Position numbers and translations under genes: made by a program | Notes under the pieces: model-generated | Databases searched by the model: none | The model's input: the letters and a program-made list of their open reading frames with translations, nothing else | Told to the model about the DNA's origin: nothing | Shown: positions 2,643 to 43,845 of the stretch, one piece after another | How the letters are laid out: the number at the start of each line of letters is the position of its first letter | Numbering within the stretch: position 1 is the stretch's first letter | Source of the DNA: Tubulanus polymorphus | Lineage: Eukaryota > Animalia > Nemertea | Assembly (NCBI RefSeq): GCF_964204645.1 | Contig: NC_134026.1 | Span: forward strand, 14,480,150 to 14,544,149 | Direction: 5' to 3' | DNA: 64,000 bases

Positions 2643-5600
2643 GTAGCTATTTTTGAAATAACGTTCATACTAACTGCGATTGGTTTGGATAGAAAAAGGA
2701 TTAATGGGGTTGCTGCCTTGATGATCGACGTAGTCATTATGCAGCTCTCAATCAATTGGATGAAGCCGCTGTCGCACCTATGCTCGAACAATCAATTAAG
2801 GCCCCAACATACGATAATTTCGCAAAATCTTGCATTGGATGTGGGAATTAAAAAGTCCTCTACCAGTGTTGATGTCTTTTCCACCAGTATCGGTTATAGT
2901 GTAAAATCCTCAACCGTTCAATTTATTTTTAGAGTGAAAGTAACTCGATTTCTTATTCTATCTATATATCGATTTTATGGACTTTCGCTTTAGCAAAGTC
3001 CATTATGCTAACGCATATGAAACTGTCTTCCTTTGGTACAAAATATCTTCCAAACGAGTCTCAGTTTCTCTTCGGAACTTTCAAAACATAAATCACAATG
3101 GATTTAATCGGAATCCGTTGCTTTTCTAATTTGAAAAATAAGCAACGGACTCAGTACTTGAATAAAGGCCCCGCAAAGAAATCGATGGAAAGAATATAAA
3201 GACGATAAGATCTCTTGCCGTTTACCCAAAATAACCATTTTCCAACCACATAAGCATATGCGGGTCTCTGTAGTATCTCTTGCTTGGATTGTGACACATT
3301 TTGCAACTTGTAGACCTCAATGTGTATAGATATGACTTCGATTGTTCTAATTTGACTTTTTATTTTAGAAGTGTTACCCTAAGTCATGGGGTTAAGTTAT
3401 GCTTGGTAAATCCATCCTCTCATTAAAGTATCAACGGTAACTAAGGTTTCCACATGATATACTTCAGAGTTCGTGACTTCCCTTGTAACCCCCCCCCCCC
3501 CCGTCATTCGTGCAAAACTGTGTCAGAGTGGCTCACCAGGTGTACCCACTGATCAAATCACATAATTTTTGTCATTCCATGAAAATAGTTTTTAGTCCAA
3601 AAACCGAAAATTCAGATTTTTTTAGCATTGATTGACGTTTATGATGTCATGCAATTTGTCAAAATATTATAATGTACCAATGCGTTAAGGCCAATATTCA
3701 AGGAAATATTTAAACAATTACTTATAGATAGGGTTAATTAGTGATACATTTAGAATATGAAGGATTAAAAGGAAATAAATATAAATTCAGAACATATTTA
3801 ACGGATAGATTTTATAGTTTATCAAGTGAAGATATTGTAGAATTATGTGCTGGTGATTTCTATTTCATATATAAAGGTAAGAATGGAAAAGGACACCATG
3901 ATATAGATTTTGAATGAAATGAAAATGTGTAAAATAAATGGTAGAATTAAAAGAATATAGATTATATATTGATTATAGAAAACTTACAAATCATAAATGA
4001 CATAATTTGCTTATACAATTAGATAGAGAATTTAAAATTGTGTAGATTTAAAATTAGTTTATGTAATTCTTTTTACAATATATCGGATAAAAGTCTTGAT
4101 CATAATGTTTTAATGATTCATGTAAAAAAATTGAATAAATGGTATCATCTCTTTTTGAAACCAGGATTATATAATTTAGAGACTTAAGCGCAATATATAA
4201 ATTGAAATCTAGGTCAAAAATGGGTGGATCTGCAGGATTTGGGATTAAATTCTTTAAAAGTGATATTAGAAATTGAAATATGGCGTTTTCATACCAGAGT
4301 ACGCAGCAGATTGTGCTAAAGAATTTACGAGTTCTCCAGTAATAACATTTGCACAAAAAGGAAAAGTTGCTACATCAGGATTAAATATATTATGCAATTC
4401 ATTAGGTTTTCATACGAATATTGGTTTGATTAAACCTAAACCAAATTGTTTTATTCTAAGGCACACAGAAAAAGAAATAACTGAAGAAGTTAGAGATTTA
4501 TTTGAAATATATAACCCAATAGATTATGTTTATGATTTACTGAAGATGGAACATTTAACTGTGGATTTCCATTAATAGCGGCCAATACTGACAGTTACAT
4601 ACAAAAAATCAAGACAAATGACATAACAAAAGACTTAAAAACATTAAAACATCATTTTGACTTAAGCAATTATCCAAAAGATCATGAGCTATTTAGCATT
4701 GATAATAAAAGCAGCCTGGTAAGTTTAAAAATGAATTAGGGGGTGATGAAATTATTGAATTTGTTGGGATAAGAAGTAAAATGTATAGTTATAGAACAAA
4801 AGATCATGAAGCTGAAAAGTTAAAAGGAATAACAAAGCATGTGGTTGATAAACATATAGAATTTCAAGATTATATAAAGTGTTTATATAACTCAATTGTA
4901 ATGAAACATGAAATGAATTGTGATCAGAAGATTACGAGATGTACATTAATGAAGTTGAAAAAACTAGCTTAAATCCATTCGATGATAAAAGATATATTTT
5001 GGATGATGGAGAAAAAACATTACCTTATGGTTATTAAAACATAAAATCAATATCATCATACTCGAAATCACTACTGGTTTCTTCATTTTTATTTAATTGT
5101 TTAGGTTCTTCCATTTCATTTTTCTCTTTAAAATAAAATTCTATATTATTCCACATTTCATCTCGCTCTCTTTGTTTCTTCTTGTTTGTTAATTCATCAA
5201 ATGGAATTATAATATCGATGTTTAAAAAATTTACAATCTTATTTAAAAAGAATTCATAATTAATTGAATCTGTTATTTTATTATCCACATAATATCTTAA
5301 TATTTTTGTGAATGTTTCTTTTATATTTTCCATATCTTCTTCTGTTGAATTAGTTTTTTTATAATAATCGTTAAATAATAAATATAAATATATTTTCTTT
5401 TGTGTTAAATGTTGATGGAATAATTGTTTTTATTATATCTTTTTTAGTTATTTCACCATTTTTATTTTCTATCATTTTCATTTTTTCAAGCCATTGCTTA
5501 TTCTGGTGTATGATCTTCCATAGAACATATTTTAAAAATTTCATCTAGATATTTCAATTTTGGTTCTATATGAAAATCTCTAGTTTTTTCATCACCCCAT

Positions 5601-5826
5601 AAATTTCTTTGCCATCCACATTCATCACAAAATATCACAGAATCTTCTTGTATTAAATAATTATAAATACATTGTGGGGATTTTTTCTATCATTTCTTGG
5701 TAAAACATCTTCATTAAGTTCTTGGTATATCCTTTCGTTTTCTTTATGTTTTATTGTTTTATTAAGGAAAAATTTTATTAAAATTAATTTCTAATGGTTC
5801 GATGTAATTTTTTTGTGATATAAATA

Positions 5827-6519
5827 ATGGCGGAATTAGAAGAATATAGAATATTTCCTGATTCTAGAAAACTTGCAAATTATACATCACATAATTTACT
5901 AGTACAATTAGATAGAGAATTTAAAAATTGTGTAGATTTAAAATTAGTAAATTTAAGTTTATGTAATTCTTTTCATAATATATCGAATAAAGTCTTGATC
6001 ATTTAGCTTTTAAAATTCATGTAAGAAAATTGATAAATGGTTTCATATTTATCTAAAACCAGGATTATATAATTTAGAAACATTAGCGCAAGAAATTAAT
6101 AAAAGAGCTCGTTTAAAAATGGGTGCAGCTGCTCGATTTCAAATTAGATTTATTAAAAGTGATAGTTCGAATAAAATAAGAATAAGGTTAACTAATGAAA
6201 AACATAGATTTCTAGTAAGAAAACCTTTAGCTAAACTGTTTGGAATTCTTCCAGATAGAGATTATTAAATATTGATACTTATACAAATATAATGCCTTTT
6301 ACCTACAAAAACATTTGACGCAACTAAAGATACAATTTGTAATTCTAGTATATTGAATATTTTACCATCAAAAAATGTTAAACAATTTGGAACACAAATA
6401 AATTATAATTTAGCTGAATGTGATTTCCTTGTATTCCAAAATTTAATAATTTTAAATTAGAAATAAGAAATCATAATGGTTACTTAATTGATTTAAATAA
6501 CTTTCCTGTAATTAGTAAT
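5827..6519 (+). pseudogene. Putative minor capsid (penton-like) gene of the Polinton-like element, frameshifted
   Basis: N-terminus YRIFxDSR...VQLDREFKNCVDLKLVNLSLCNSFHNI, internal LKPGLYNLETLAQEIN, C-terminus FNNFKLEIRNHNGYLIDLNNFPV. This resembles single-jelly-roll penton patterns. The assignment is inferred. Confidence 0.55.
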
Positions 6520-6534
6520 TTCTTTTCTAAATAA

Positions 6535-6968
6535 ATGGATGATAAAGTTGATAATATTGATATTATTTCTCATGATATAAATAAAACTAAATTAAAATTA
6601 TATTTGGAAAAACAAATATTAGAATTTGAAAATGATTTAAAAATTAAAAAAAAAACATTTAAAAAGCAAAATTACATATTATATTATTATTAGTAGTTCA
6701 GTTACAATTAGTTCCGTGATAACATTTCTAGCATTATTCTCACCATTAACACCTTTAGCTATCTCAATTGGAGCTTTAGGTTTAAGTTCAAGTGTATTAA
6801 CCGGCACAAGTTAAAAATTAAATATAAAAAGTAATAAAGAAAAAATTAAATGTAATATAAAAGAAATTAATAAATTGAAAAATACATTACATTATATAAT
6901 GAGTTTAAATGGTAATATAACAGTTGAAGAACAAGATAAATTATCAAAAGAATTAATAAATTATTATT
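6535..6968 (+). pseudogene. Two-TM coiled-coil protein of the Polinton-like element (resembles adintovirus GasderminX-type ORFs)
   Basis: Basic helix, two hydrophobic segments, then KEKIKxNIKEINKLKNTLxYI. Paralogous copies start at 14691 and 20712. Confidence 0.45.
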
Positions 6969-6984
6969 TTTTTTGATTATATAA

Positions 6985-9012
6985 ATGGTAGATAGTTTTC
7001 CAAAAGCTTTTCAATATAAAAATCAATTAAATATAATATTCTAGCAATAGATTTTTAATAAAGATATTTCATATAGAAATGAAGTTTTAGATTCATTAAT
7101 TAATTTAGATATTTATGTCACTGAAACTAATAATTTTAATGCATAGATGGAAAGTATATTTCATGTATATATAAATAATTTCAAAAAATTGAAAGATGAA
7201 AAACAATGGTTATTAAAATCTAATATGAAGTATTGGCAGAACCAATTAAATTTTGCAGTTTATTGCGCAACAATAGGATGTGGAATTAGTTGGAATGATC
7301 ATTTGAATAATTCAAAATATAAATTAATCCAAAGTTTATTTAGATTTCATACTTATTTTCAAATAAGAGACCCCTTTACCAGGATCTAGATATTTTAAAG
7401 AATTAGATAATAATATTAATTTATCAAAGTTTTATAAAATTTGTAATTAATTTAATATAGATATAAATAATTCTGATTTTAGAACAAAAATTGGAACAAT
7501 GAGATCACTTCCTTGCCCAAAAAAATTGTAGAATATTGCACACTTCCCATACCATCTAATATTTTTTTACAATATCCATAATGATAAATTAGGTTATGGT
7601 AAATAATAATAATAATAATAATAATTTATTTACTTATAAAGCGCATTTCTATAAAACATAATCATTGCACTTCACATTATTAAAACATATAAGACAGAAG
7701 CAGGTTAAAACACTAATTGTACAGGTTTCTAAAAAAAAAAATTTTTAAACGTGATTTAAAACATGAGACGGTTGGACTTTCACGAATTTCCTGTGGTAAG
7801 ACATCCATAAAGTTGGTGCCATGAAAGTAAAAGCTTTACGTCCAGCAACACGACTGTTATTAAGTTTAACTAAAATTGTTGGGTCATTGCTAGATCTAAG
7901 AGGTCGACTTGGAACATACTTAGTTAAAAGACTGCAAGTACACTGGAGCAGTACCATTAAGACATTTATAGACAATTAATAACATTTTAAAATTTACTCT
8001 ATCTAAGATGGGCAGCCAGTGCAAATCACTTAAAATAGGAGTAATATGGTCATTTTTTCTAGCCCTAGCAATTAGGCGAGCAGCATTATTCATTACAAGT
8101 TGCAGTTTTTTAATATTAGACGCAGATGTACCAGCCAACAGAGAGTTTGCATAGTCTAGCCTGGAAACCACTAAAGAGTTGACAGCATTTTTACACGATT
8201 GGTCATCCAGAAGGTGACGAATTTTGCTAATGCAATAAAGATGATAATTTGCTGTAGAATAGAAAATATAGATTTAAAAACATTAAATTTAAATTAGTTA
8301 CCGAAATTCTGCGATAATTTAAACAATAAAACAATAATGGTTGGATTTATTTTATTTTAGAAAATAGTGAAGATTTTACAAAATCAGGTATACAAAGAAT
8401 AAATCAATCAATTAGAACTTATTTGATATGTATTCTAGGTGCACAAGTTGAAACAAGATCCCCAATAATTGGAAATTTGAATACATCATTTGATACACAA
8501 AAACAATTCAAAGTTTTATTTGAAGATTCTTTCATAATGATAAAAATAGATCGATTCCAGAAAACATTGTAAGATATCAAAACTATTTAGATAAATCACA
8601 TGTAAGATTGAATTATTGTATAGGCCCTAATTTGTTAATTATTTCTAATGATTTAATATTAAAAATGGGTAATATAATTGGTTATAATAATTTAATTAAA
8701 ACTGCAACAATAGATAATAAGTTTGGATTAAAAGATATAAATAAAAAGATTATTACGGCTCCAAAACTAATGGAAGGTGAAAAAAATAAAAAAACATATT
8801 CAATCAACTGAAACTAAAACTAAGAATATCAAATTGGATAATGATTTTAAAATAAAAGATTACAATACTACAGAAAATATAAAAACTGATATTATCCAAC
8901 ATGATATAATTAAAACTAACAATGATAATAAATCCCATGAAAATACTAAATTAGCTATTACTTGTATAGGAATTGTAATAGGAGGAATATTTTTTATTTT
9001 AATTTTTTTTAT
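6985..9012 (+). pseudogene. Polinton-like ORF-D (WQNQLNFAVYCATxGCGIS motif, C-terminal TM), split by a LINE insertion
   Basis: TAAATG start. ORF pieces at 7147-7389, 8608-8811 and 8777-9019. A second 5' copy begins at 21144. Confidence 0.6.
7602..8256 (-). mobile_element. 5'-truncated L2/CR1-group LINE (ORF2 C-terminus plus 3' tail)
   Basis: SRLDYANSLLAG...LQLVMNNAARLI...HITPILSDLHWLPI..RVNFK motif, with an (ATT)n 3' tail at about 7602-7626. Confidence 0.85.
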
Positions 9013-9019
9013 TATATAA

Positions 9020-10430
9020 ATGGATGTAGAAGGTGGAGAAGATATTGGAATGGATACTTTGATGAACCCGGCATAACTGAAGAACAACCGTCTGATTTTA
9101 GTGAAACAAGTTTTAATGACGGTAATGAGCCAGAATATGATAATAATTTAAATATGCCCGATTATGTTAAAAATGCAGAATCACAATTAGATCCTGAAAA
9201 TTAGATCCAGATTTAGTAAAACAAGATTTAGATGATTTAAACAAAATACCTAAATTAGAACGTATGATTGAAAATTCTAAACTTAACATAAATGATGAAG
9301 ACGTTGGACCTTTAGCAGATCAATTAAAATCTTTAGATGATGGTAAATGGTATTATCATTTGAAAGGTGATTATTATATTGATATCTCGAATCAAAGTAC
9401 AAAACTAAATAAAACATTAGCAGAATCAACTTTGAGAAAATTTAGAATTAAAAAAATCATTAATGATATTATAACTGATGTTACAATACAAGAAAAAGAT
9501 GATAATATAGACGTATTTAAACAAAGAATTAATGAATTATTTGAAATAATCAAAAAGAAATCAGAAACAGAAACAACTTCTGAACAGAATATAACTTCCA
9601 AAACTAGTAAACTTAAATCAAATAAAATTCCAATTGAAAAACTTTTACCGAATGGATTAATTGATGCAACGGATCAACAATTAGAAGATTAAATATATTT
9701 TCTGATAAAGCAATTAGAGAAATTATTAGTAAAAGACTTGCATCTGATAAAATTGTGCATGATAAAAGTATAAGAGATTTTAAAATTAGAACTTTAGAAA
9801 AAGATTGAACTGATAGAATTAAACAAATAGAACAATTAAAGTTAGATAGAGATAATAAAGTTATTGAAGAAATTGAATTTAAAAAAAGAAATGCATATTT
9901 AGAAAAAGAAAAAGATGATTTAGAATATAACATAAAATTACAGGAAGAAGAAATTAAGTTATTAAAAATTATCCTATGATTATAATATTAATAGATTAAA
10001 AGTTGTTGTTAGAGATTTGTTGATAAAACCAAATTCTCAAATATCATTAAAAGATAGAATAAAATTATTATTTAAATTAGAAGGTATAACAATTCGTTCA
10101 ATTCTAACAGCTGTAACTATGTTATTTACAATAGGTTTAGCTATTTCAAATTCATTAAAATCTACATCCAATAAACCGGATAAACCTCCGAGTAATAATT
10201 CTATACAAGATAAAGTTGAGGATGGTTTAAAAAAATTAGCAACATATCTATGGGAACTATCTAAAAAATCTGCTGCAGCATTACCTGGAATTATAGCATC
10301 GATTGTTGGTTTTGTTTTAAAATCTGCTGGAAGTATTATTAACTTTGCTGCTGAACATATTATTTCATTTTTAATTACAATTGTTAGTGCTATTATTTTT
10401 GGATTAGTGAATATGATAAAGAATAAATAA
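9020..10430 (+). pseudogene. Polinton-like ORF-E: acidic N-terminus, coiled coil, C-terminal hydrophobic helices
   Basis: TAAATG start and several stops. C-terminus LKDRIKLLFKLEGITIRSILTA...AAAALPGIIASIVGFVLK...FAAEH. Confidence 0.6.
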
Positions 10431-11093
10431 GTAATTTAAATAATTTTTCTTAATAAATGAGTGGTAGTTATATAAATCCTTACGAAGAGCAACTAAACTT
10501 ATGAAGAGCAACATAAATTTATAGTAAGAAAACCATTAGCTAAAATTGAAGCAAATAAACTTTAAACATATGTTGATGCTTTTGTAAATATAATACCTTT
10601 TACACATTTATATATATATTGTAATTTAATTGACCCTGTAAAAACATTTGAAGTAAATAAAGATAAAACTTGTAATTCTAGTATTTTAAATATTAACCAT
10701 TAAAGAATGTAAAACAAATTGGAACACAAATTAATTATAATTTCTCTGAATGTGATTTCAAACCATGTATTCCACAATTTAGTAATTTTGAGTTAGAAAT
10801 TAGAAATCTTAATGAATACCTAATTGATTTAACCCTGTGGAAGCCCAAACATGCTTCTGGCAGTAGGGCATACCCTTGCAATTACACTAAGCGCCACATA
10901 GTTGAGTCTGCCCTAATTACTCGTCACTCAGATATTAGTACCAATTTAAATAATGGCTTTTCTCCGCATAATTCCCTTCTTTCTAATTATATTACTTCAT
11001 GCCTTGCCAAACACTAATTATTTACTCACTCACCAATTTACTCAATTAATCTGTCCTCCTCTGTGTATATACCCCTTTTTAAATGTATATCTC

Positions 11094-11135
11094 ACACCTG
11101 ACGATGATCTCTAGGGTGAGATCGAAACGTCGTGT
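11094..11135 (+). ncRNA. Minimal type I hammerhead ribozyme in the pseudo-LTR
   Basis: ACAC-CTGACGA-T-GATCTC(tagggt)GAGATC-GAAA-CG-TC-GTGT provides the core, stem II and stem I. Confidence 0.75.
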
Positions 11136-13484
11136 CTTTTATATATTTTTGATTGAATACATAAATTCTGATTTTTAAATTCTTTTAATCTGTAAATAGT
11201 GGGATTTTATCTTATTATCCGTCCACCACGATTGAGTGTGGTTATCGTACTATTATGTTACCCACGGATTTTAATTTGGCTTTGAAATTCTTATTCATAA
11301 CCTTTCCTCATTTGATCTTTGCCTTTCGAAAATACGAATCTGCTGCTTATAAAGCTCACAAATCCAAAGAAAACGTCATATTTCTTCAAAAATGTCTCCT
11401 GGAACAGATTATTCCTAAATCTCTGAATTGGTTGAATAAATTCAAATCAGATCAACCATTTTCCAATGAAGCAGCATCTCATCTAAGAAATTGCATTTTG
11501 GAAGCAAAAGAAACTACCAACTCCAATTTCTATAAAATGCGATTAGTAGAACGTTTTCTCAGACACCATATACCTGATGGTTTCCTTTGGCACTCTCTTC
11601 ATTCAGGCATCAAGAATCTTTGCGCGGTACATCGTCTTAAGAAAAATTCGCATTTCTCTTCCATTCCGAATAATTTAATTGACAACAGCCCTTGGACCAA
11701 ATTTTACGCTACTGATAATGTTGTCAATCTATCTTCGGCTAAATTAACCAAAACCGAAATTCAAATTCTCGGTTTAGGATTAAATTTCTCTCTCCCGCAT
11801 AAAAAACAACACATTTTGCATTTCGTTGAACGTATGGAAAGATCTCCTCCGGCTAGTTTTCAATACAATTTTATATTCATGAATTTGGACACCATTTGGA
11901 ATACCCTTCAAGGTCAATCTAATCAGTTCTTTCCTCGGAGATTTTCGATTGCTCTCCAGGAACTAAAATCCATCAAAACCATCCGCATCTCCAAGGCTGA
12001 GTAAGGCGGCAAAATTGTTATTCAAGATTTGATCAATTACAATTCTAAAATGTTTGCTATTCTCGGTGATTCCAATTTCTACAAATCCATCAAAAACAAC
12101 CCTTTGAAAAAGATGCAATCAGCTTTTAATTTAGGTTTAAAAACATCTCTAAGAAATTTCCTGACCATTCGGACTTCATCTCCAAATTCAACTCTCGGCT
12201 TCCAAATCTCCCTTATGCTTATGGTCTTCCAAAAATTCATAAACCCAATTCACCTTTAAGACCGATCATTTCTAATATCAATTCTCCATCATATCGGCTC
12301 TCCAAATATCTGGCTAAAGTACTCTCCCCGGCGTTGGGTACTTTTTCTGATTCTCACATTCGGCACAATATGGATCTTTTAGACAAACTCAAAAATCTCA
12401 AACCTAATGGACAAAAATTTAAACCTTTCGACGCTGTTTCCTTGTTCACAAATATACCATTGGATCCAACTCTCAATTTGATAAAAAGAAAAAACTCCCG
12501 GACTCCAATCTTGATCTCCCAATTCCCGTAGTATGTTTACTTGAACTTTTGGAACTCTGTACATCCAATCTATATTTCCAAATCCAAGACAAATTCTATG
12601 AACAAATTTTCGGTTTCGCTATGGGTAACCCATTATCCCCGATTTTAGCCCATCTTTTCCTTGAACACTTTGAATCCGAAATTCTCCCTAAGTACGCTGG
12701 CTCTAAACCTAACTTTTGGATTAGATATGTTGATGACATTCTGTGCTTAGTTTCTGATAGTTTTGATCTTACCTCTTTTATCGACTTCATCAACTCCCAA
12801 AATCCATCTTTGAAATTCACTTTTGAATGGGAACAAAATGACCAAATTCCGTTTTAGATGTTCTAATTCACAATACATTTTCTCATTTGATTTTCTCAGT
12901 CTACCGTAAACCTATCAACGCCGAGGCATACCTTCACTTCTTTTCGTTTTCTGCTAAATCAATCAAAATTGGTCTCGCTCAATGCCTCTTTCTCGGTGCA
13001 CTGCGGATCTGCGATGAAACCTTCCTTTCGGCTGAATTTGAACATATATCCAACTCTCTTAGAAAATTGCCTTACCCTGATCACATTTTGAAAATCGCTA
13101 TTTTTAAGGGTAAACGTACTTTCTTCAATTCTAAGCCTCCAGAAAAGAAAAAACACATTTTAGAGTTCATTTTAGTTACGTATGTACCTGTTTTGGAAAA
13201 GTTTCGTCACTCTCTCCCTTTATCGGATAAATAAATCATTTTCACGTATGAAAACAGGATTAGTAGGACTTTGGTTAAAAAAATCAATCTAAACTTTTGG
13301 ACCTAATAACTCGTCACTCAGATATTAGTACCAATTTAAATGACGGCTTTTCTCCGCATAATTCCCTTCTATCTAATTATATTACTTCATGCCTTGCCAA
13401 ACACTAATTATTTACTCACTCAACAATTTACTCAATTAACCTGTCATCCTCTGTATATATTCCCCTTTTTTTAATCTATATCTC

Positions 13485-13526
13485 ACACCTGACGATGATC
13501 CCTAGGGTGAGATCGAAACGTCGTGT
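13485..13526 (+). ncRNA. Hammerhead ribozyme, second pseudo-LTR copy
   Basis: Same motif as 11094-11135 with one stem II change. Confidence 0.7.
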
Positions 13527-15339
13527 CTTTTATATATTTTTGATTGAATAAATAAATTCTGATTTTTAAATACTTTTAATCTGTAAATAGTGGGATTTTA
13601 TCTTATTAACTTTCCTGTGATTTATGGATTAGTTGTAAGATGTAATGAATAATCAATTTTTTTTATAATAAATATGGATATAACTGTCGGGCCGTGTATA
13701 TGTTTTGGGTTTGATTTTAAACATGGTAAAGAAATGAGAATTAAAATAAATGATCTGATAGTAAAAGTAAATCATTTAACAATGCATCAATGATTTATAA
13801 AGAAAATTATGATAGAGAAACAGTAATTGATTTAATTAAAACATCTTTAGAATATAATGAATTTAATGAAGATGGAATTATTGGTGATATTAAAAATATA
13901 TTATCTAAAATATATGATAATCATAAAATCAGTAATGAAATAAATGTTGAATTAATTATAAGTAAGATTTCTAAATATTTTGAAGATGGTATATTTTTAA
14001 TGAATTAATGGCCGATCAGAAGTGGATAATAAATGGATTATATAATGGCGCATTATTATCAGTTGGAACTGTTGGTTATACAATGATCTTGAAGAAAGTA
14101 TTTAAATTTGGAAATATCAGTGTTGATAGATTTGATATAAATGATATTTTAAAATTAACATTTCGCAGTGACTTTATCTTATTAAAAAATTGGTTATTTA
14201 GAAAAAAAGAAATATATTCCTCCAATTGACGTGTAATTTTTTGTCAGATAAATGGCATCTGTAATTATAACTATTATAGGATCGGCAATAGATAAAATTT
14301 TTAATTGGTGGTTATTCATTTAAACATATTGATAAATATGGTTCAGTACCTGAACAAAAAAGACATAATCTAGCATTAGAAAAATTTAATAAAGCAGCAG
14401 AAAAATGTAGAGAAAAAAAAGACAAAATTATATGGATTATATTAATAAAGAATTATATTATCAAAATATTTCACATAGACATTTTAAATCAGTTGATGAA
14501 GCTATGAGTTTATATAATTGAGTAACAAATAATCAAAAATTACAACTATATAAACCTAAATCTTCAGATTATTATACTCCGAGTAAAGAACAACGACAAT
14601 GTGAAAAAATTTGGATTTAAGGTGGAACAGTTGTTATATTTGTAGCGTATAGATTTACAAATCAATTATGTATTATTTTTTGCTAAATAAATGGAAGATA
14701 AAATTGATGGTGTTAATATTATTGCTCATGATATAAATCAAACTGAATTAAAAATATATTTAGAAAAGTGATTTAAAAGTTAAAAAGAAAAAATATTCAA
14801 AAAGTAAAATTATATATTTTTTATCATTAGTGGATCAGTTACAATTAGTCTGTATATAACAAATATAGCGATATTCAGTCCATTAACAGCTTTAGCTATA
14901 TCAATTGGGCTCTCAGGTTTATGTTCAAGTGTTTTAACCGGAATAAGTTCAAAAATGAATATAAAAAGTAATAAAGGAAAAATAAAATCTGATATAAAAG
15001 AAATTAATAAATTGAAAAATACATTCGATTATATAATTATTTTAAATAGAAATATAACAATTGAAGAACAAGATAAATTGTTAAAAGAATTAATTGACTG
15101 GTCCAGTCGTCAATGGCTTCAAGTAGGTATAATTGACTGTTTGTCGACCTTCCTTTTATAAACTGTATCAACCGTTTAACATGATTTTAAGGCTGTGCAG
15201 AAAACCTGTTATCGCTGCTTTGCAGCTATATTTATCATTGATGCCTGCAATATAAGTAGTATTCATAATCGATATCATTATTTTGAATACATTTAGTTGG
15301 AATATCCTTATTATACGTAATTTCTAATTCTTCTATTGT

Positions 15340-16840
15340 CTTTTCAATATCAATATTATTCTTATTCGATTTTTTAGATTCATGCTCTTTAGTTCTGTAA
15401 CTATACACTTTAGATCTGATTCCTATAAGTTCTATCATTTCATGTGAACCTAATTCATCTTTAAACTTTCCTGGGATCTTTTTTTTATTTTCATTACTAA
15501 ATAATTCAAGATGTTTTGGATAATTACCTAAGTTGAAATGATGTTTTAATGTAGTTTAATCATTTGTTAGATTATTGGTTTTTATCTTCGAAATGTAAGA
15601 ATCGGTATCAAAATACATAATTTCAATATGTGTTTCTCCAAAATGTGGTTGTAAAACATTATAGTAAAATCGATACATTGATAATTTTGAAATTTCTAAA
15701 ACTGATGCACCGACATAAATTGGTTTATTTAATTTCATTGACGTTCTTCTCATTTTAACTGCAGCAAAATTTTCATCAAATATTCTGGTACCCATGAACT
15801 TTGAATACGTTTGTAAATGTCTAATTCGTTTACCATTACTAACTAATTCAATATGATTTCTATTACTAATATTTTCACATGCTTTTCCATAAAATGCATT
15901 ATTAAAATATTTTTCAAATTCTAATATTGTATCTTTTTCTGTTCTAAAAAATGAATCAATTCGTTTCATCCATACATAATGATTCTCATTATATAATATA
16001 TCTATAACATCGTTTGAATCATAAATATCAAGTTTCTAATGTATAATATGAAATTAATTTCACATATTTATTATTTTTTTGTGTTATAAACATGTAATGT
16101 CATAAATATTATTTCATCAAATATTAAACCAGATCCTTCAAAAATTTCTCTTCTATTTTATTTTTTACTTCATTATGACATTTATCTAATTTAAAATCTA
16201 TATGATATTTAGGTATAATATGCTGTGACTGAGAAATAATATTGATATTTAGGTATAATATGCTGTGACTCTAGAAATAATATTATATATTGGTATATCT
16301 TCAGATTTTTATAAATCTAACTTTAGTAGATATACTTATTTTATGATATTCTACATCGGTAATTTTCATAATATTTTTCATATTTTCTAAATGTTTTTTA
16401 TTTTCTTCTAATGTTTTACCTTCATGAAGTCTAAATTCAATAGCTGCTGGAATTTTACATGTTGGACAGTAGTATTTGCTTCCATTTGTTAAAAGTATTT
16501 TCTATTAAAATCTATTCATTTTTATTCGAAATCTATATCATGGTGTTCTTTTCTAACCTTTATATATGAAAGAGAAATCACCAGAACATAATTCTTCATT
16601 ATCTTCACTTGATAATCTATGAAATCTATCGGGTATATATGTTCTGAATTTTTATTTATTTCCTTTTAATCCTTTATATTCTGAATGTATCACTAATTTA
16701 TTACCATATCTATTAGTAATTGTTTTAATACTTGTAATTAAATATTTCTTATTCATTGGTAATTCCGCTAACTTTTAAAATTTAAAATCTTTGAATTAGC
16801 ATTTGTAGTAACTTTAATTCTAGCTAGGAATGATTTGTTT
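15340..16840 (-). mobile_element. Internally deleted Polinton-like copy (orfS then PolB)
   Basis: orfS remnant at about 16840-16525, PolB ATG at 16485, and PolB motifs NNAFYGK and YFDTDS in ORF 15556-15969. Confidence 0.85.
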
Positions 16841-16925
16841 AATTTTTCAATTGATTTGATTTTTTTCGTGTATACTTTAAAACGAACCGAATATGATATG
16901 ATACATGTGTCCTATATCTTTATAG

Positions 16926-17047
16926 TAAGGGACTCAAAGTGTAATTATCCCTCTGCCTGTAATTCTATGGAGTCGCTTCTGTTCCATGGTGACCACCTGA
17001 ATAATAATCTATTCGATGAAGTTATTGACATGCTGACATGCGAAGGG
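16926..17047 (+). CDS. ALDH18A1: P5CS exon containing the catalytic Cys motif
   Basis: Acceptor tttatag|TA and donor GGG|gtatgt. Translates (V)[20 protein letters not shown], matching the P5CS YPAACNA motif. In phase with both neighbouring exons. Confidence 0.93.
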
Positions 17048-17128
17048 GTATGTTCTCCATTTAACGTTTACGGATATTATTTCATACGGTTTCTAATTCG
17101 TCACCCATTTCATTAATTCTACCTACAG

Positions 17129-17315
17129 GTCACAATTTACTCTGGACCAAATCTTCAAAGTAAGTTAAAATTTGGACCAACGGCCGCCAGAAATATGAGC
17201 TATGAGTATGGCAGTCTTGCATGTACAGTCGAGATAGTTGATGACCTCGAAGATGCTATTAACCATGTCAATAGATATGGAAGTGCACATACGGATGTGA
17301 TTGTTACATCATCTG
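17129..17315 (+). CDS. ALDH18A1: P5CS exon
   Basis: Acceptor cctacag|GTC and donor G|gtaag, after an 81-bp intron. Translates VTIYSGP...[36 protein letters not shown], the ProA signature region. Confidence 0.95.
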
Positions 17316-17582
17316 GTAAGTTACTTCATTCCTCCATGCACGCAAAATCACTGATATTTCTTCGTGAAGATTATTGGTATAATCATATGTTAGGTTTCCC
17401 TTCCATTTTGCCGGAACCATCCTAAATAATACATGTATATCATGGTATATGTCACGGTTTACTATATGACCGTTTCAAGTCCATTTTGCTATCACTTATG
17501 AGCCTTTCCTCCTTTGGCACAAAATATATTCCTATTCGGAACTTTCAAAACATTCAAAGCAGTAATGCAATCTCTAACCTTA

Positions 17583-17830
17583 TTCATGGGTTTCGTCGTC
17601 AGACGAACCCATCTATGGCATCGTCGTCATGTCTGTCCGTCTGTCTGTCCGTCTGTGCATGTTTCTTTATGACACGATTTAAGCCGTTTGTGTGGACCGA
17701 CAATTCTTTCACACAGGTATTCTCTACGTGATGTAGATGGTGCAGCTTGGTTTATATTTGATTCCGATGGTTATAAGTGCTCTAATTTGGTTAAAAGATA
17801 ATTAACGTTACTCGCTTCAAGCCGCTGTCT
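17583..17830 (+). mobile_element. HINE/DINE-like element 5' end
   Basis: Palindrome ATGGGTTTCGTC-gtca-GACGAACCCAT followed by a (GTCT/GTCC)n microsatellite. The 3' end is not defined. Confidence 0.4.
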
Positions 17831-18710
17831 AGGGCGTTGCTACGACGACGCTCGATCAACATACTGGTACTCGCTGCGTAATACTGAACACGTACATATC
17901 TGTAGATATTGATCGTACTAGCACCGGTTTTAGATAGCGCGCGCGCTGATCGGTCTTAACACTTCTCGGAACTGCTGTGCTAAATGCCGAGAGGCCGAAT
18001 CTACGCGCAATCATTTATTGGGCTCGTCACATTTGATAGTGAATGGATAAATAACCGGTGTCAATGACGGTCGCTACTCCCCATCAGTATAACTCATCAG
18101 TATGAGGAATAATTCTTTCGAGTTTTTTTTCAATCCCCGAAGTTGTTGTTACAATGCTGACCTCGCCGTTTTATAAGCTTACTGATGATTCTTCTAGTAT
18201 TTTCAGGGTCACAAGACATGACGAAATCGCGAAGTTTTCTACAAATTTCACGACTCAATAATTATTTAGGCGGCACCTGATCTATTGATTAATTATGATA
18301 AATAAAGTTTATTTCATTAAAAATTTGTTTTATTCAAACATAGCGTGATCGGTAGGCCCTACTATTCTACGGTAGGCCATGAACTCTTTCATGGGGTAGG
18401 CCTATTACAAATGATACAATCCGCGCGTCCGTGAATAAGTGACACGTGGTGGGGCGGGTTGTGAGGAGCATCGAAACTAATCCGTCACAATTAATAGATA
18501 GAAAACAATGCCTTAAGAGGTTAACTTTTGTTAACATCATTACCAAATCAAAACCTGCACACCCTATCATAAATAGAAATTCTAAGAATTTATTTCAAAA
18601 AATAATAAATTGCGTCTAAATATTGGGATTCGAACTCGTAGCATCGATTCGGGTGCCTTTCCCAAAGCGGGTATCCCGCGGGGAAAACCCATTACTATTT
18701 ATATCGAGAA

Positions 18711-19008
18711 TACCTTTGCATCTTATCAAACCTTAAGAGTCTAGAAATAATTGAAGTTGACTAATTATAGGAAGTTTTTTGTTCGAAATTCCTTTCAAAC
18801 GATCAATAACTTCAGCGAAGTACTTCATCTGACAATTTCTAAACCATTAGCCTTCAGCATTTTCAATTTCTGACCTCGATGAATATGCGAGAAGCGATTA
18901 CTCTTATCACCACGTAAATTTTTTGCATAACGTCTGACGTATGCAGTGATTCTATGCAACTGCGATGATGACGAAAATACGTTTATACCTATAACGTCGA
19001 CCGCTTGC
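18711..19008 (-). repeat. BEL/Pao fragment, near-identical to 45266-45562
   Basis: Direct sequence match. Both copies encode QAVDVIGINVFSSSSQLHRIxAYVRRYAKNLRG. Confidence 0.85.
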
Positions 19009-19011
19009 GAC

Positions 19012-21332
19012 CAATTGTGTAGGTTTAAAATTAGTAAATGTAAGTTCATGTAATTCTTTTTATAATATATCGGATCAAACTTTTGAACATGGAGGGTTTA
19101 TGATTTATATGAGAAATAAAGATAAATGGTTTCAACTATTTTTAAACCAGGATTATATAATTTAGAATCATTAGCGCAGGAAATTAATAGAAGAGCTCGG
19201 TTGAAAATCGGGGGCACTTCTGTGTTTGAAATTAAATTTTATGAAATTGATAGTTCTAATAAACTAAGAATAAAGATAGCTAATGATCAACATAAATTTA
19301 TGGTAAATAAACCAATGGCTAAAATGTTAGGAATTAAACCGCTTACAGTTACTGGAAACGCAGAAGGCTTCTCAAATATAATACCTTTTACACACTTTTA
19401 TATTTATTGCAATTTAATCGATCCTACAAAAACTTTCGAAGCAACTAAAGAAACAATTTGTAGTTCTAGTATATTAAATATTTTAGCGATAAAAAATGTT
19501 AAACAATTTGGAACTCAAATAAATTATAATTTAACAGAATGTGATTTCAAACCATGCATTCCTCATTTTAATAATTTTAGATTAGAAATTATAAATCATA
19601 ATGAATATTTAATTGATTTAAATAATTTACCTTTGATATATGAATTAGTTATAAGATGTAGAGAATATTTTTTTCACTATATAAATGAATATAACTGTTG
19701 GGCCGAGCATATGTTTTGGATTTGATTTTAAACATGAGAAAGAAATGAAATTTAACATTACTGATGTAACTACACATATTAAAAATATTGCATTGTTAAT
19801 GAAACAACATTTGAGTATGAAAAAACAATAGATAAATAGAAAATTATAATAAAGAAAAAGTAATTGATTTAATTAAAACACCTTTAGAATATTATGAATT
19901 AAATGAAGACGGAATTATCGATGATATTAAAGATTAATTATCTAAAATATATGATAATCATAAAAGTAGTAATGAAATAAATGTTGAAATATTTATAACT
20001 AAGATAACTAAATATTTTGAAGATAGTAATTTTTTTGATAAATAAATGAGTGATTATAAGTGGATAATAGCTGGTTTATATAATGGAGCATTATTATCAG
20101 TTGGAACTGTTGGTTATTCAATGGTATTAAAAAAGTATTTAAAATGGGAAGTGTTTATGTTGATAGATTTGATATAAATGATATCTTAAAATTAACGTTA
20201 GCAGTAACTATATCTAATTTAACTATTGATTATTTGGAAAAACAAAAATATATTCCTCCTATATAAATGCGTAATTTTTTTGCGAAATAAATGGCTTCTG
20301 CAATTATAACTATTATAGGATAGGCAATTGTAAACGCTTTAGCATTTACAGTTGGTGGTTATTTATTTAAGCATATCGGAACAAAAAAGTCATAATTTAG
20401 CATTAGAGAAATACAATAAAGCAGCAGAAGAATATAGAGAAAAGAGACAAAACTATATGGATTACATCAATAAAGAATTATATGATCAGAAGCTTTCACA
20501 GAGATTTTCAATCAGTTGATGATGCAATGAGTTTATATAACGCGGTAACCAATAAAGAAAAATTACATATATACAAACCTAAATTATCAGATTATTATAC
20601 CCCAAGTAAAGAACAACAGAAATATGAAATAATTTGGATTTTAGGTGGAACATTTATTGTTATATTTGTAGCATATAAATTTACTAATTAGTAATTTTTT
20701 TTGCTAAATAAATGGATGATAAGGTTGATAATATAGATATTATTCCTCATGATATAAATAAAACTAAATTAAAAAAATATTTAGAAAAACAAATATTAGA
20801 ATTTGAAAGTGACTTAAAGATAAAAAAGAAAAAATATTTAAAAAGAAAAATTGTATATTATTTTATTATCAGTGGTTCAGTTACAATTAGTTCTGTAAAA
20901 ACATTTCTAGCAATATTCAGTCCATTAACACCTTTAGCTATAACAATTGGCGTGCTAGGATTATCATCGAGTCAAAATTAAATATAAAAAGTAATAAAGA
21001 AAAAATTAAAACTAATATAAAAGAAATAAATAAATCAAAAAATACACTAGATTATATAATAAGTTTAAATGGTCATATAACTGTTGAAGAACAGGATAAA
21101 TTATTAAAAGAATTGATAAATTATTAATTTTTTAATTATATAATTGGTAGACAGTTTTCCAAAAGCTTTCCAATATAATAATTCAATTAAATATAATATT
21201 CCAGCAATAGATTTTAATAAAGATATTTCATATAGAAATGAAGTTTTAAATTCATTAATTAATTTAGATATTTATGTTACTGAACCTAATAATTTAAATA
21301 TAAAAATGGAAAATATATTTCATGTGTATAAA
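19012..21332 (+). mobile_element. Polinton-like fragment: penton-like gene, ORF-A, ORF-B, ORF-C, two-TM gene, start of ORF-D
   Basis: Collinear with 13608-15097 and 6535-7175. Starts at 19685, 20046, 20291 and 20712 are each T-run-N6/7-TAAATG. Confidence 0.85.
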
Positions 21333-22293: not shown

Positions 22294-23696
22294 TAACGAG
22301 ACGAGTAGTACTGTTTAGGTTAACTATTTGTTTGACGCACGAGCTTTCGCTTCTAATGAATAGAAGCTTCATGTGAATGAGTATAGTCAATAGAAAAACA
22401 ACAGCTATCGAACTCAGCCTCGAACACTCGCCTCTTCAAATTCCTTTTTTGGACACTAGTCAAAATCATGAACGGTAAACTCGAAACATCGCTCTACAGA
22501 AAACCTACTGACACCTACAGCTACCTTCACGGCACCAGCTTTCACCCACCACACCCACGAGATCCATCGTCTTTAGTCAGGCCATTCGCTACCACAGAAT
22601 CTGCTCCAACACTCAAGACCGCGATCAACACCTACAACAACTGAAAAATGCTTTCCACCAACTCCAGGACAACCCTGAAACCATCGACCAACAAATCACT
22701 CGCGCTACTCACATACGCAGAGAAAGAACACTCCAATGCAACCAGCCCAGGTCTGCAGAAACCGAAAGAATCACCATCGCAGTCACCTACAGTCCGCGCC
22801 TACGCAGAATCCAACGAGTCATATCAGATCTCCAACCCATAATCGAAGATGATGATCATCTACGCGACATACTACCACTAAGACCAGTGGTCGCGTACCG
22901 CCAACCAGCAAACCTAAGAAAACTCCTCATCAGCAGCAAACTATCCACCGAAGAAGACTCAGATAACAAATACACGCGCCCCTGCAACAAATCTAGATGT
23001 CAACTGTGCCCTCTCATCAACTCATCACCGACCGTCGCCGCAGCCAACAACCAACAACTCGAAGTCACTGGATCCTACACATGCGACTCCCCCAACGTTG
23101 TTTATGCCATCACATGCGATATCTGCCCTGGAACCATCTACATCGGAGAAACTGGACAAACATTACGTCAACGCTTGAACGGTCACAAATTTGATATCAG
23201 ACACAAGAAAATGGATAAACCTATCGGCGAAGATTTCAATCTTCCGAACCACACCATCAGTAACCTAAAAGTGACCGCGTTACATAAAATGAACACTTCT
23301 AATAAGCATTCGCGCGAAATTATGGAACAAAAACTTATTCAACGCGGTGATACTGTTAATCTTGGCCTCAATGCCGATCTAGGATTCATGTCCCACTATT
23401 TACTTTGATATAGTAACATTTTGATTTATTTCTCTTTGATTTGATTTAGTTTGTTGTTCCTTGATTAATTAATTATCTACTCACTCACTTAGTTATTAAT
23501 TATCATGTCACTCATCATTTATTTGTAATTACTCTTCTCACTCAGTTCTCTTTAATTAGTGTCAGTCCACCTATAAATACTGTTTGTTTTTCTATTGACC
23601 ATACTCATTCACCTGATGAAGCTTCTATTCATTAAAAGTGAAAGCTCGTGGGTCAAATAAATAGTTAACCTATACATTACTACTCGTCTTGTTACT
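22294..23696 (+). mobile_element. 5'-truncated Penelope-like element (Neptune type) with an inverted pseudo-LTR
   Basis: RT thumb (LYRKPTD), Cys motif PCNKSRCQLC and GIY-YIG endonuclease (VVYAITC..C...YIGETG) in ORF 22887-23408. Positions 22294-22403 are the reverse complement of about 23580-23696. Confidence 0.9.
23610..23650 (+). ncRNA. Minimal hammerhead ribozyme in the Penelope-like 3' repeat
   Basis: CAC-CTGATGA-A-GCTTCT...AAAAGT-GAAA-GC-TC-GTG. The inverted copy near 22338-22375 has a perfect stem II but lacks CTG. Confidence 0.65.
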
Positions 23697-27247: not shown

Positions 27248-28160
27248 GTGAGTTTAGAATTGGTGTTCCTGGCTCCTACAAATGCCGTTGAGTTTGTCAT
27301 TAAGATCTTCATTTGCGTCTATGCCTTTTGGCAATACGAAAGAAACTAAATTCAGATATAGCTGCAAAGCAGCGATTACTTTTCTGCCTCACCGGATTAA
27401 AAGTCACCCTGGGAAGCGTAACAACCGATTTCACGAACTAGCTAGTAGATGTTAAGCTAAATTGCATCGCCCATACGTTAATTTGTAGACTTTCTTTACA
27501 TGGATCACCACATGCAACGATAAACTTTACTTCAGAGACTAAACGATTAACTGAAAATACATAACTTCAACCAATCAACATAGACAATTGTTTAGTAGTT
27601 GAGTGAACAAAACATACTAAATGTAATAATGCCACAAACACCGGAAGGTGGAGCCACCTTGCGGCACACAATTGAACAAAATAGTATAGGTTCAACAGGC
27701 CAAATTACCAAAGATATATGAAGTATACAAGTAAAGGTAAGGGTGCACAATGACAGCTGTGAAAAAAGGCCATTTATAGACGAAACACTCCCCGAAATAT
27801 AGCCCACAAAGCCACAAACGTAAAAACTGCAATCTTATACTTCAAAACTTTCAAAACACCATGAGAGAAACCAACTTCCAAGAAACAAAAACTTTCCAAA
27901 TGAAATGTGCAAAAATTAACAAGAGAAACGTAGTTTACAAAGCGTACTAAGATTTCATCAGCTGTTGTTACCTAGGAATCAACAAATTTCCTGTTGTACG
28001 AAGTGAAGAATAACGAAGATAAGGTGCTTTCATAGTCTCCTGGTCTCAGCAGTTGCATGAACTAACCATGATTGTTGGATATTGCACTTGTGTACTTATA
28101 CCAATTTTGAAACCGAACTTAACAACGTAAACTCGACAAATTCTAATTGATTTCAATAGG

Positions 28161-32842: not shown

Positions 32843-32906
32843 AATTTAAAACATGTTGTTAAATGTGAATAAAGCTGCAATTTTATTACTAATATCTTTT
32901 CATCTT

Positions 32907-39710: not shown

Positions 39711-39780
39711 CTTATAATATTCATATATATGAATATAAATAACTTCTAAAATTGATTTTTATAGAAGATTTGATATTAAA

Positions 39781-43816: not shown

Positions 43817-43845
43817 TCCAATTCTAATAAAAATATGTATTATAA

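Follow-up and report, generated by a model that had tools for sequence, protein, structure and literature searches.

Decayed copies of a Polinton-like virus in a host gene

The window analyzed here is a stretch of 64,000 nucleotides from the nemertean Tubulanus polymorphus (NC_134026.1, positions 14,480,150 to 14,544,149 of the forward strand). Decayed copies of a Polinton-like virus sit within introns of what is, judged from its translated exons, the host P5CS gene; the intron after the P5CS exon at 2450–2642 (~2643–16920) contains the first element fragments, and the copies in the window are broken relics. The features are as follows.

2450–2642, + strand: host P5CS (ALDH18A1-like) exon, its translation and AG/GT borders read from the sequence
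3704–4265, + strand: element fragment with an SSB-like small gene and the start of a penton-like gene; the TAAATG at 3935 lacks a T6 run
4595–5032, + strand: pPolB C-terminal fragment whose DNA is 74% identical to that of the PolB at 43302–43736
5034–5760 (left end approximate), − strand: broken VLTF3-like gene with a Cys-rich N-terminal piece and a C-terminal piece (5037–5429)
5808–5829, + strand: variant cassette T7-N6-TAAATAATG before a penton-like gene (5827–6510, broken)
6515–6537, + strand: variant cassette before a two-TM SLATT-like gene (6535–6964, broken)
6967–6987, + strand: strict cassette before a conserved 442-aa C-terminal-TM gene (6985–8977, broken; interrupted by an RT fragment at ~7640–8300)
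9003–9022, + strand: strict cassette before a 485-aa coiled-coil/TM gene (9020–10430, broken)
10444–10459, + strand: variant cassette (T5) before a ~10-codon stub
13657–13676, + strand: variant cassette before a 126-aa-family gene (13674–14008)
14237–14254, + strand: strict cassette before a 139-aa membrane gene (14252–14659, broken)
14676–14693, + strand: strict cassette before the second SLATT-like copy (14691–15101, broken)
15238–16839, − strand: inverted element fragment with an SSB-like gene, a deleted pPolB and a piece of a 206-aa-family gene
17126–17316, + strand: host P5CS exon (phmmer E 1.1e-19 to PDB 7f5t, 1.6e-15 to 2h5g)
19010–19662, + strand: third copy of the penton-like gene, 5′ end lost
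19668–19687, + strand: strict cassette before a 126-aa-family gene
20030–20048, + strand: strict cassette before a 75-aa membrane gene (20046–20263)
20275–20293, + strand: strict cassette before a 139-aa membrane gene (20291–20691)
20695–20714, + strand: strict cassette before the third SLATT-like copy
~21128–21149: mutated cassette (TAATTG) before a second 442-aa-gene stub
28160–30650, + strand: further copy with terminal palindrome, SSB-like gene and pPolB pieces; TAAATG at 28777
39588–44980, + strand: longest copy, with terminal palindrome, pPolB (39781–43689, broken), SSB-like gene (TAAATG 43843) and penton-like gene (TAAATG 44210)
60585–64000, + strand: further copy, cut off by the end of the window, with a 406-nt terminal palindrome and pPolB

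The initial annotation had proposed an endogenous virophage-like element; by its gene set, the element is a Polinton-like virus of 20–25% GC. Its pPolB is 36–48% identical to pPolBs of viral contigs, and a fragment of the longest copy (39588–44980) matches PF03175 (E 8.8e-6; 25.3 bits against a cut-off of 25.8) and Endonuclease_7 (E 1.2e-5). A mostly intact relative (contig L004; 11.5 kb, 20% GC) additionally encodes an integrase with rve (E 1.5e-10) and Chromo domains, of the rve type through which mavirus also integrates, a Pox_A32 ATPase (E 4.6e-11) and a divergently oriented dNK gene; tblastn with the integrase and ATPase gave no match in the window copies, and both were found in L004 only. 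The L004 orthologue of the two-TM gene matches SLATT_fungal below cut-off (E 0.0013). The penton-like gene is a candidate by size and one weak pairwise match (E 3e-4), with no family match; protein searches with its window fragment, a decayed query, were empty. Of the Polinton hallmarks of terminal inverted repeats at both ends and a 6-bp target duplication, only left-end palindromes were seen, in three copies that are all truncated.

The L004 gene at 5877–7124 appears to encode a jelly-roll-like major capsid protein (MCP), which we counted as a double jelly-roll on the strength of a low-confidence model (pLDDT 49.9): its listed PDB matches are without exception jelly-roll capsids (best E 3e-8, TM ~0.3), the best BFVD match has an E of 5.8e-11, and the MCPs of mavirus and Sputnik rank below that of PBCV-1 in the fold search with this model, which is too weak to place the protein. 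In the window, where tblastn with the MCP found no match, we infer that the ~10-codon stub behind the cassette at 10444–10459 is the start of the capsid gene, the remainder having been deleted, because of the gene order of L004 and a likeness of the first codons judged by eye. No adenovirus-type cysteine protease was found among the 16 ORFs of the incomplete contig L004, and no RNA polymerase among the scanned window ORFs or the ORFs of L004, whose incompleteness is evident from the lack of a visible PolB. An interpretation of L004 as a circularly permuted, nearly complete genome was rejected, since its last ORF does not resemble PolB N-termini significantly and a PolB tail is missing from its left end. 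Queries with the 485-aa, 442-aa (model pLDDT 34.9), MCP and VLTF3-like proteins found no relatives in the viral contig scans, and tblastn of MCP and PolB against phage sequences gave no match. The element may belong to the coral/hydrozoan/bivalve lineage placed near Aquintoviruses (10.64898/2026.06.19.733378), a lead at this stage.

A T-run/TAAATG cassette at element gene starts

A run of T, a spacer of 6–7 nt and TAAATG form a strict cassette that occurs eight times, always on the + strand, within a 14.9-kb span. All eight sites reported by the initial annotation, whose coordinates refer to the T of TAAATG, are present (ATG at 6985, 9020, 14252, 14691, 19685, 20046, 20291 and 20712), its spacer list agrees with the sequence, and the four near-variants are as it described them: 5821 (TAAATAATG), 6532 (T-run broken), 10454 (T5, spacer of 5 nt) and 13669 (TAAATATG). 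Since the span contains several decayed copies of one element, the strict sites represent six different genes, and the 12 sites including near-variants represent eight. The assumption that the ATG of each TAAATG is a start codon can no longer be read from the window, where the genes are broken, and depends instead on the intact orthologous ORFs of L004.

Markov simulations, 200 each at orders 1, 3 and 5, gave mean expectations of 0.08–0.16 strict sites and a maximum of 2, so that the eight observed correspond to a ~50–100-fold enrichment. The distance from a run of at least six Ts to TAAATG is 6 nt in seven cases and 7 nt in two, with none at 0–5 or 8–16 nt; moreover, the strict cassette has no match in the 38,565 bases of the window that lie outside the element, despite 38 TAAATG and 71 T6 runs there. 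T stands at −10 in 11 of the 12 sites. Among orthologues, in a set that had been selected for carrying TAAATG, conservation is 0.77 for the T-run versus 0.43–0.50 for the spacer and 0.39 for distal DNA.

The cassette precedes every gene of a mostly intact relative

All 15 genes of L004, which are non-homologous to one another, start at TAAATG, with T at −10 in 14; the motif is found at 14/15 starts versus 6/387 other ATGs of the same contig. Across L004–L007, TAAATG marks 26 of 28 curated starts versus 53/746 other ATGs, and T occupies −10 in 25/26 of these starts versus 20/53 non-start TAAATG. A blind first-ATG rule yielded TAAATG at 24/26 starts, against 5/131 in 13 other pPolB loci, among them a 22%-GC control with 1/11. 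The base at −3 is T in 24/26 starts versus A in 86/131 control starts, and this T, contrary to the A of controls, fits transcription starting inside TAAAT. The comparison with AT-rich controls named in the initial annotation was run, and the motif withstood it.

Two parts of the initial description need revision. Its restriction to structural and membrane genes was too narrow, the motif preceding all L004 genes, including those for the integrase and dNK; and its intergenic gaps of about 20 nt hold for part of the contig, where 6 of 13 measured gaps are at 0–20 nt, the extremes being an 80-nt overlap and a gap of 710 nt. The coding strands of L004 show no avoidance of AATAAA (60 observed versus 58.9 expected, ~6 per kb), in a test that had no positive control, no tested set being depleted. 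A depletion of TTTTTNT (5 versus 10.8) was dropped as evidence, other homopolymers being equally depleted.

TAAATG starts also occur beyond the close relatives. Two of 39 control contigs start genes this way (L003, 7/7; L048, 8/10), with T at −10 in only two starts each; L058 has TAAATG at 5/11 starts, all with T at −10, L056 at 4/12 and the AT-matched control L034 at 1/11. In relatives at 40–54% identity (L008–L010) it is found at 1/11 starts, and GC-rich relatives carry a different, NCLDV-early-like upstream motif, AATTGAA, at 15/37.

Resemblance to poxvirus late promoters

Vaccinia late promoters, in the accessible parts of PMC11980589 and PMC5294985, place TAAAT(G) over the start codon, with a conserved T at −10 among weaker Ts and a 5–7 bp spacer. 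The poxvirus late layout proposed by the initial annotation agrees with the element in the overlap of TAAAT with ATG, the T at −10 and the spacing; as far as these sources describe them, in orthopoxvirus late promoters, too, TAAAT lies across the start codon, a T-run includes the T at −10 and the spacer varies over 5–7 nt. The difference from vaccinia is that here a non-poxvirus element has the cassette before all of its genes, among them those for the integrase, dNK and an SSB-like protein. Other promoter types are rare at L004 starts (mimivirus late 1/15, mimivirus early 0/15, TATA box 1/15), and the baculovirus TAAG did not fit at element starts. A CroV-like W4-TCTA-W4 is present at 4/15 L004 starts versus 4% of controls, probably as a by-product of T-run and spacer.

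A VLTF3-like gene beside the cassette span

The broken VLTF3-like gene stands between PolB and the penton-like gene, divergent from the latter; it adjoins the left edge of the span initially annotated, where it was overlooked, and supplies a rival mechanism. It matches PF04947 with an E of 2.4e-5 (24.6 bits versus a cut-off of 25), alongside weak Zn-ribbon matches and an ESM Atlas score of 0.88 that serves as a lead only, the neighbours of the piece being general Nucleocytoviricota clusters and not poxvirus ones. Protein searches with this decayed fragment were empty, and no VLTF3-like sequence was found in L001–L027 (L004 included) or in other window copies. VLTF3 has been reported in some (coral) polintoviruses and in Mriyaviruses of 35–45 kb.

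A proposed poxvirus-type helper and the alternatives

The reading we favour, as the probable though far from settled one, is that the element is virophage-like and that a putative helper virus of poxvirus type transcribed its genes from the cassettes with a cytoplasmic RNA polymerase. The T-run around −10 would be the promoter core and TAAAT the initiator; transcription would begin within AAA and slip, producing a 5′ poly(A) leader, so that the T at −3 stays out of the mRNA. RNA polymerase and late factors would be supplied by a co-infecting large DNA virus, an enzyme from outside being invoked because none was found in the window copies or the 11.5 kb of L004. An integrated copy would stay silent until helper infection, upon which packaging, capsid, membrane, integrase and nucleotide-kinase genes would be expressed together, the VLTF3-like gene of one copy being an optional helper-matching accessory. 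Counting against a helper are the TAAATG starts elsewhere, their near-absence in the 40–54% relatives, the VLTF3-like gene and the incompleteness of L004, which leaves room for a missing RNA polymerase or factor; the integrase, implying a nuclear phase, also weighs on that side.

A wider and distinctly more tentative proposal is that animal Polinton-like viruses include a widespread lineage, lacking a protease, whose members are virophages able to switch helpers by recoding all of their promoters, with the poxvirus-late T-run/TAAATG in an AT-rich branch and AATTGAA in a GC-rich one. On this view, the copies described here might preserve in the germ line the fossil traces of a poxvirus-type virus still to be discovered in the host group, and the captured VLTF3-like gene might be a tool to seize helper late transcription.

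Less probable than the favoured reading is a system without a helper, in which host RNA polymerase II would be steered to the cassette in the nucleus by the element's own VLTF3-like or other protein. The gene at 5034–5760, the reports of VLTF3 in coral polintoviruses and Mriyaviruses and the nuclear entry implied by the integrase speak for it, but L004 has the motif at 15/15 genes without VLTF3-like sequence, which is equally absent from L001–L027 and the other window copies; a TATA box lies upstream of one start in 15, sense strands contain ~6 AATAAA per kb, and if transcription began at TAAAT with no poly(A) leader added, the leader would presumably be ~2 nt long.

We think it rather unlikely that the helper belongs to the large DNA viruses outside Poxviridae and shares TAAAT in its late promoter by happenstance. 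For most lineages of large DNA viruses the promoters have yet to be mapped, the polymerase promoters of ranaviruses have been noted to contain TAAAT, and those of ASFV late genes are bipartite as well; unrelated Polinton-like contigs again show TAAATG starts, and the Atlas neighbours of the VLTF3-like piece are not poxviral. However, in the accessible literature compared, a T peak at −10, a free spacer and TAAAT fused to ATG are described jointly for poxviruses only.

The cassette could also be a feature of packing and translation in a compact AT-rich genome, the T-run ending the upstream transcript and TAA-ATG coupling stop to start, as might be suggested by T-runs often lying close behind upstream stops (two in L004 fall inside the upstream gene's last codons) and by direct stop-start joints among the TAAATG of L048. 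This is improbable given that TAA is the upstream stop in only 1/15 L004 genes, that the motif also precedes genes with gaps of 91–710 nt and the divergent dNK gene, upstream of which no gene ends, and that a terminator would not hold a fixed 6–7 nt distance to the next ATG. Chance in DNA of 20–25% GC, inflated by repeated copies (12 sites collapsing to eight genes), is scarcely credible against the Markov controls (at most two sites versus eight), the 14/15 versus 6/387 contrast within L004 and the 1/11 of AT-matched L034.

Relation to known systems

Mavericks/Polintons (adintoviruses, Polintoviricetes; PMC8502044; 10.64898/2026.06.19.733378) share with the element a pPolB with EndoVII-like domain, an rve-chromo integrase, an A32 ATPase, a jelly-roll capsid and a SLATT-like gene, and their copies, as here, lie inside a spliced host gene. 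The element differs in having no protease seen and a capsid unrecognizable by BLAST against the presumed canonical Polinton capsid (L030; E 0.13, not significant). According to a 2026 preprint, virions of animal Mavericks/Polintons have not been observed; a gene-wide poxvirus-type late signal makes the mode of transcription of these elements, and any dependence on a helper virus, testable.

Similar in proposed lifestyle are the entomopoxvirus-associated Polinton-like viruses AHEV_PLV1/2, CBEV_PLV1 and Ca_PLV1 (Barth et al. 2024, PMC11296320), which were found in entomopoxvirus occlusion bodies and tied to poxviruses by co-occurrence. As described in the accessible text, they too are small animal Polinton-like viruses, proposed poxvirus parasites with divergent capsids, but carry a cysteine protease of adenovirus type together with a tyrosine recombinase or no known integrase; the L004 family, with its rve-chromo integrase and no protease seen, falls outside this group. 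Five of its short protein motifs were absent, by exact match, from the accessible supplement of that study, whose main text contains neither "promoter" nor "TAAAT" and no promoter analysis. Poxvirus-associated Polinton-like viruses are thus already published, while promoter evidence for the link was not found in print; nor was a report of poxvirus-type promoters in Polintons found in the accessible literature, which took in few subscription journals and no bioRxiv supplements. If true, the helper reading would provide a mechanism for a poxvirus hyperparasitism for which co-occurrence has been the sole argument to date, would lead one to expect poxvirus-like viruses in hosts from which none may be known and would make the helpers of endogenous Polintons readable from their promoters.

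Mavirus with CroV, Sputnik with mimivirus and Gezel-14T with PgV likewise combine a large-DNA-virus promoter motif with an element lacking RNA polymerase in the sequence seen; the helper promoters used are the late ones in Sputnik and mavirus and the early one in Gezel-14T, according to the accessible part of 10.1101/2022.07.28.501842. They differ in their protist hosts, Imitervirales helpers and motifs (TCTA, AAAATTGA), and in that helper dependence, shown there, is inferred here. The yeast cytoplasmic linear plasmids pGKL1/2, as far as covered by PMC6831550, have an RNA polymerase and a capping enzyme of their own, neither of which was seen in the element, but are likewise linear with TAAA-type initiators, and the slippage-made 5′ poly(A) leaders predicted here have been shown there.

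A start-codon cassette in decayed element copies

The eight cassettes listed in the initial annotation for 5808-20714 (6982, 9017, 14249, 14688, 19682, 20043, 20288 and 20709), each consisting of a T-run, a 6-7-nt spacer and a TAAATG whose ATG starts a gene, were all recovered together with four near-variants (5821, 6532, 10454 and 13669), the coordinates being those of the T of TAAATG. The pattern T6-[ACG]N5-6-TAAATG occurs eight times in this 14.9-kb span, every time on the + strand, and comparison with shuffled AT-rich controls, run as a Markov simulation, found it commoner in the span than in the controls (orders 1, 3 and 5, 200 simulations each: mean 0.08-0.16 matches, maximum 2). In the element segments taken together, a run of at least six Ts stands 6 nt from TAAATG in seven cases and 7 nt from it in two, with none at 0-5 or 8-16 nt; no cassette match falls in the 38,565 non-element bases of the window, although 38 TAAATG and 71 T6 runs occur there. 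Because self-comparison of the window reveals several decayed element copies (65-90% identity), the sites are not all independent, the eight strict ones marking six distinct genes and all twelve marking eight. The site at 10457 appears to be the stub of a capsid gene.

Identity of the element

The element is a Polinton-like virus, and its copies in the window are relics. Its blocks sit in introns of the host P5CS gene, of which an exon (17126-17314) matches P5CS structures (E 1e-19). This spliced gene, together with the kinds of transposons present, suggests an animal host. The AT-rich blocks carry pieces of a protein-primed PolB (pPolB), with a PF03175 match of E 8.8e-6 on a fragment, slightly below the cut-off, and an Endonuclease_7 match of E 1.2e-5; for the first small gene, a phi29-type SSB cluster whose score stays below the highest range provides a lead. 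Relatives of the 485-aa gene number 351 at E<=0.001 among 50%-identity representatives, and an eight-relative alignment of the 442-aa gene was used to fetch 24 metagenome loci. The closest long locus, L004 (11.5 kb, 20% GC), has the gene order of the window module and structural-module proteins mostly 55-90% identical to the window pieces; beyond that module it carries an rve-chromo integrase, an A32 ATPase and a deoxynucleoside kinase (dNK; PF01712, E 1.7e-31). Since its integrase gene is split over two ORFs (L004:7141-8469 and L004:10340-10981), L004 may also be decaying. The predicted fold of its 415-aa protein, of low confidence (pLDDT 49.9), matches double jelly-roll capsids (best E 3e-8 with TM about 0.3 in the PDB, best E 5.8e-11 in BFVD).

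The start signal in intact relatives and controls

The cassette had been assigned to structural and membrane genes, a restriction that does not hold: all 15 curated L004 genes, a set that excludes the integrase's second ORF as well as small ORFs in antisense, start with TAAATG. So do 11 of 13 genes in the related loci L005-L007, against 53 of 746 other ATGs in L004-L007. In these loci a T is found at −10 in 25/26 motif starts vs 20/53 non-start TAAATG, the A at −1 is invariant and the spacer sequence is free. Among orthologues picked for having TAAATG, identity is 0.77 at −12 to −8, 0.43-0.50 in the spacer and 0.39 further upstream. At −3, 24 of the 26 close-relative starts have a T, and among 131 control starts 86 have an A. 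Eukaryotes favour A at −3, so that the T is not explained by translation context. Initiation inside the AAA followed by slippage, a mechanism described in PMC6831550, would take it out of the mRNA. At some starts (L004:565, 1333, 8470 and 9951; window 3935, 43843 and 44210) an A-rich rather than T-rich block lies upstream of TAAATG, a subset that recalls the split between vaccinia intermediate and late promoters.

Under a blind rule taking the first ATG of ORFs of at least 90 aa, TAAATG starts account for 24/26 in L004-L007, 1/11 in L008-L010 (40-54% identity), 4/82 in 17 GC-rich relatives and 5/131 in 13 other pPolB viral contigs, including 1/11 in a 22%-GC contig. A fourteenth pPolB contig, L003, has 7/7 (12/138 when pooled with the other 13), and 25 more integrase-bearing contigs (27 loci, two duplicates dropped) have 23/233, with 8/10 in L048, 5/11 in L058 and 4/12 in L056. 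TAAATG starts are therefore lineage-specific yet recurrent. TAAATG and T at −10 are found jointly in 23/26 starts of L004-L007, 2/7 of L003, 2/10 of L048 and 5/11 of L058. In the Polinton-like viral contigs L003:1-9034 and L048:1459-10262, TAAATG starts thus mostly lack the −10 T; the L003 integrase, nearest to that of L004 (48%), seems by eye to be fused to a protease-like N-terminus.

Resemblance to poxvirus late promoters

Vaccinia late promoters place TAAAT(G) over the start codon and have a conserved T at −10 amid weaker Ts (PMC11980589); the T-containing core of poxvirus late promoters sits 5-7 bp from TAAAT (PMC5294985), and salmon gill poxvirus retains TAAATG at many conserved genes (PMC4542343). 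The L004 starts are like vaccinia late promoters in TAAATG, −10 T and overall geometry, the vaccinia late pattern fitting 14 of 15 starts vs 6 of 387 other ATGs. The mimivirus late motif fits 1/15 L004 starts and the early motif 0/15, baculovirus TAAG fits 3/15 (6% of controls), and CroV-like TCTA fits 4/15 vs 4% of controls, these last matches being likely a product of the T-run plus spacer. The divergent Polinton-like lineage has a real, gene-wide and conserved signal with poxvirus late-promoter geometry, for which the helper is predicted. In the literature searched, which took in few subscription journals and no preprint supplements, no Polinton is described as having promoters of poxvirus type. 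Depletion of TTTTTNT in L004 was dropped as evidence, being not specific.

A broken VLTF3-like gene (PF04947, E 2.4e-5, 24.6 bits, cut-off 25) occupies the − strand between PolB and the penton-like gene, directly adjoining the span on its left; Atlas gives a lead to the same identity with a fairly high score, all ten top family matches agreeing. The initial annotation had overlooked this gene. As no VLTF3-like homologue was found in the loci L001-L027 or in other window copies, the motif is not obviously dependent on it; L004 itself is incomplete. VLTF3 has already been reported from some polintoviruses (10.1101/2023.10.06.561300) and is also named in figure legends of PMC8502044.

Predicted helper and alternative explanations

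The motif, its geometry, its coverage of all genes and a Polinton-like gene set are established. We slightly favour, as the most likely reading, that the element relied on a cytoplasmic RNA polymerase of poxvirus type. The cassette would act as the promoter, transcription would start there and give a poly(A) leader, and a helper virus would supply the polymerase, the element being silent without it. Virophages use the promoters of their helpers (10.1101/2022.07.28.501842), and the element is likened to them, its helper being predicted; a virophage-like working with any helper is fairly likely, a statement on its way of working, apart from any membership in Virophaviricetes. The first poxvirus hyperparasites were proposed from co-occurrence by Barth et al. 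2024 (PMC11296320), the main text of which contains no promoter analysis. Those Polinton-like viruses, found in association with entomopoxviruses, encode a protease but lack an rve integrase, unlike the window element's family, which has an rve integrase in L004 and fell outside the group in a gene-set test. Elements that fall outside the main groups of Mavericks have been noted in corals, hydrozoans and bivalves (10.64898/2026.06.19.733378), and the family may correspond to these; further related literature includes 10.1101/2024.03.25.586562, 10.1101/2024.03.23.586382 and PMC11464507.

That a factor of the element's own steers host Pol II to the cassettes is unlikely. A TATA box fits 1/15 L004 starts. 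The coding strands of L004 show no avoidance of AATAAA (60 seen vs 58.9 in 500 synonymous shuffles), which is what transcription by an enzyme other than Pol II would give, but avoidance was absent from every tested set, so that the comparison has no positive control. A helper among large DNA viruses outside the poxviruses appears less probable still. A T-run terminator combined with stop-start packing is doubtful, given that the TAA of the motif forms a stop-start joint in only one of 15 L004 genes and that the motif also precedes the divergent dNK gene and genes separated from the previous one by as much as 710 nt. Chance is negligible, eight matches standing against a simulated maximum of two.

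In a GC-rich branch (L011, L015-L017, L019 and L020; GC 45-49%, ~31% protein identity), AT-rich islands lie upstream. AATTGAA, which resembles the mimivirus early motif AAAATTGA, precedes the ATG by 26-39 nt at 15 of the 37 starts curated in 8 loci of the branch (0.012 expected per window, orthologues among the 37 not being independent), a hint of different helpers within the family.

Other features of the window copies

Between two element fragments, an AT-rich open stretch of 101 aa (4270-4575, +) has no Pfam or PHROG match. The order of genes varies among copies, an SSB-like gene lying before PolB (28160-30650) or after it (39588-44980), or a VLTF3-like gene being present instead (4595-6510). 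Palindromes and nested or neighbouring insertions are as follows.

Palindromes and inserted elements in the window
28160-28299: imperfect palindrome, 140 nt, start of an element copy
39588-39710: imperfect palindrome, 123 nt, start of an element copy
60585-60990: imperfect palindrome, 406 nt, start of an element copy
Among 10912-13608, 22512-23408 and about 7640-8300: RT element with 307-nt direct repeats (95% alike) on both sides, nested in or near the element
Among the same three intervals: GIY-YIG-bearing piece, nested in or near the element
About 7640-8300: RT-like fragment inside the 442-aa gene
30884-34805: DDE_Tnp_4 transposase next to a YqaJ gene
45266-47400: piece judged by eye to be BEL/Pao-like, accompanied by a 298-nt repeat at 18712-19009
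50525-59183 (-): LTR-type retroelement carrying RT and a Baculo_F envelope gene (E 4.8e-10)

The three terminal palindromes open with AGTAAT and close with ATTACT, and their sequences differ among copies while self-complementarity is kept; they possibly represent a replication origin or a fold-back end. L005 has a similar palindrome-like stretch right before its penton-like gene.
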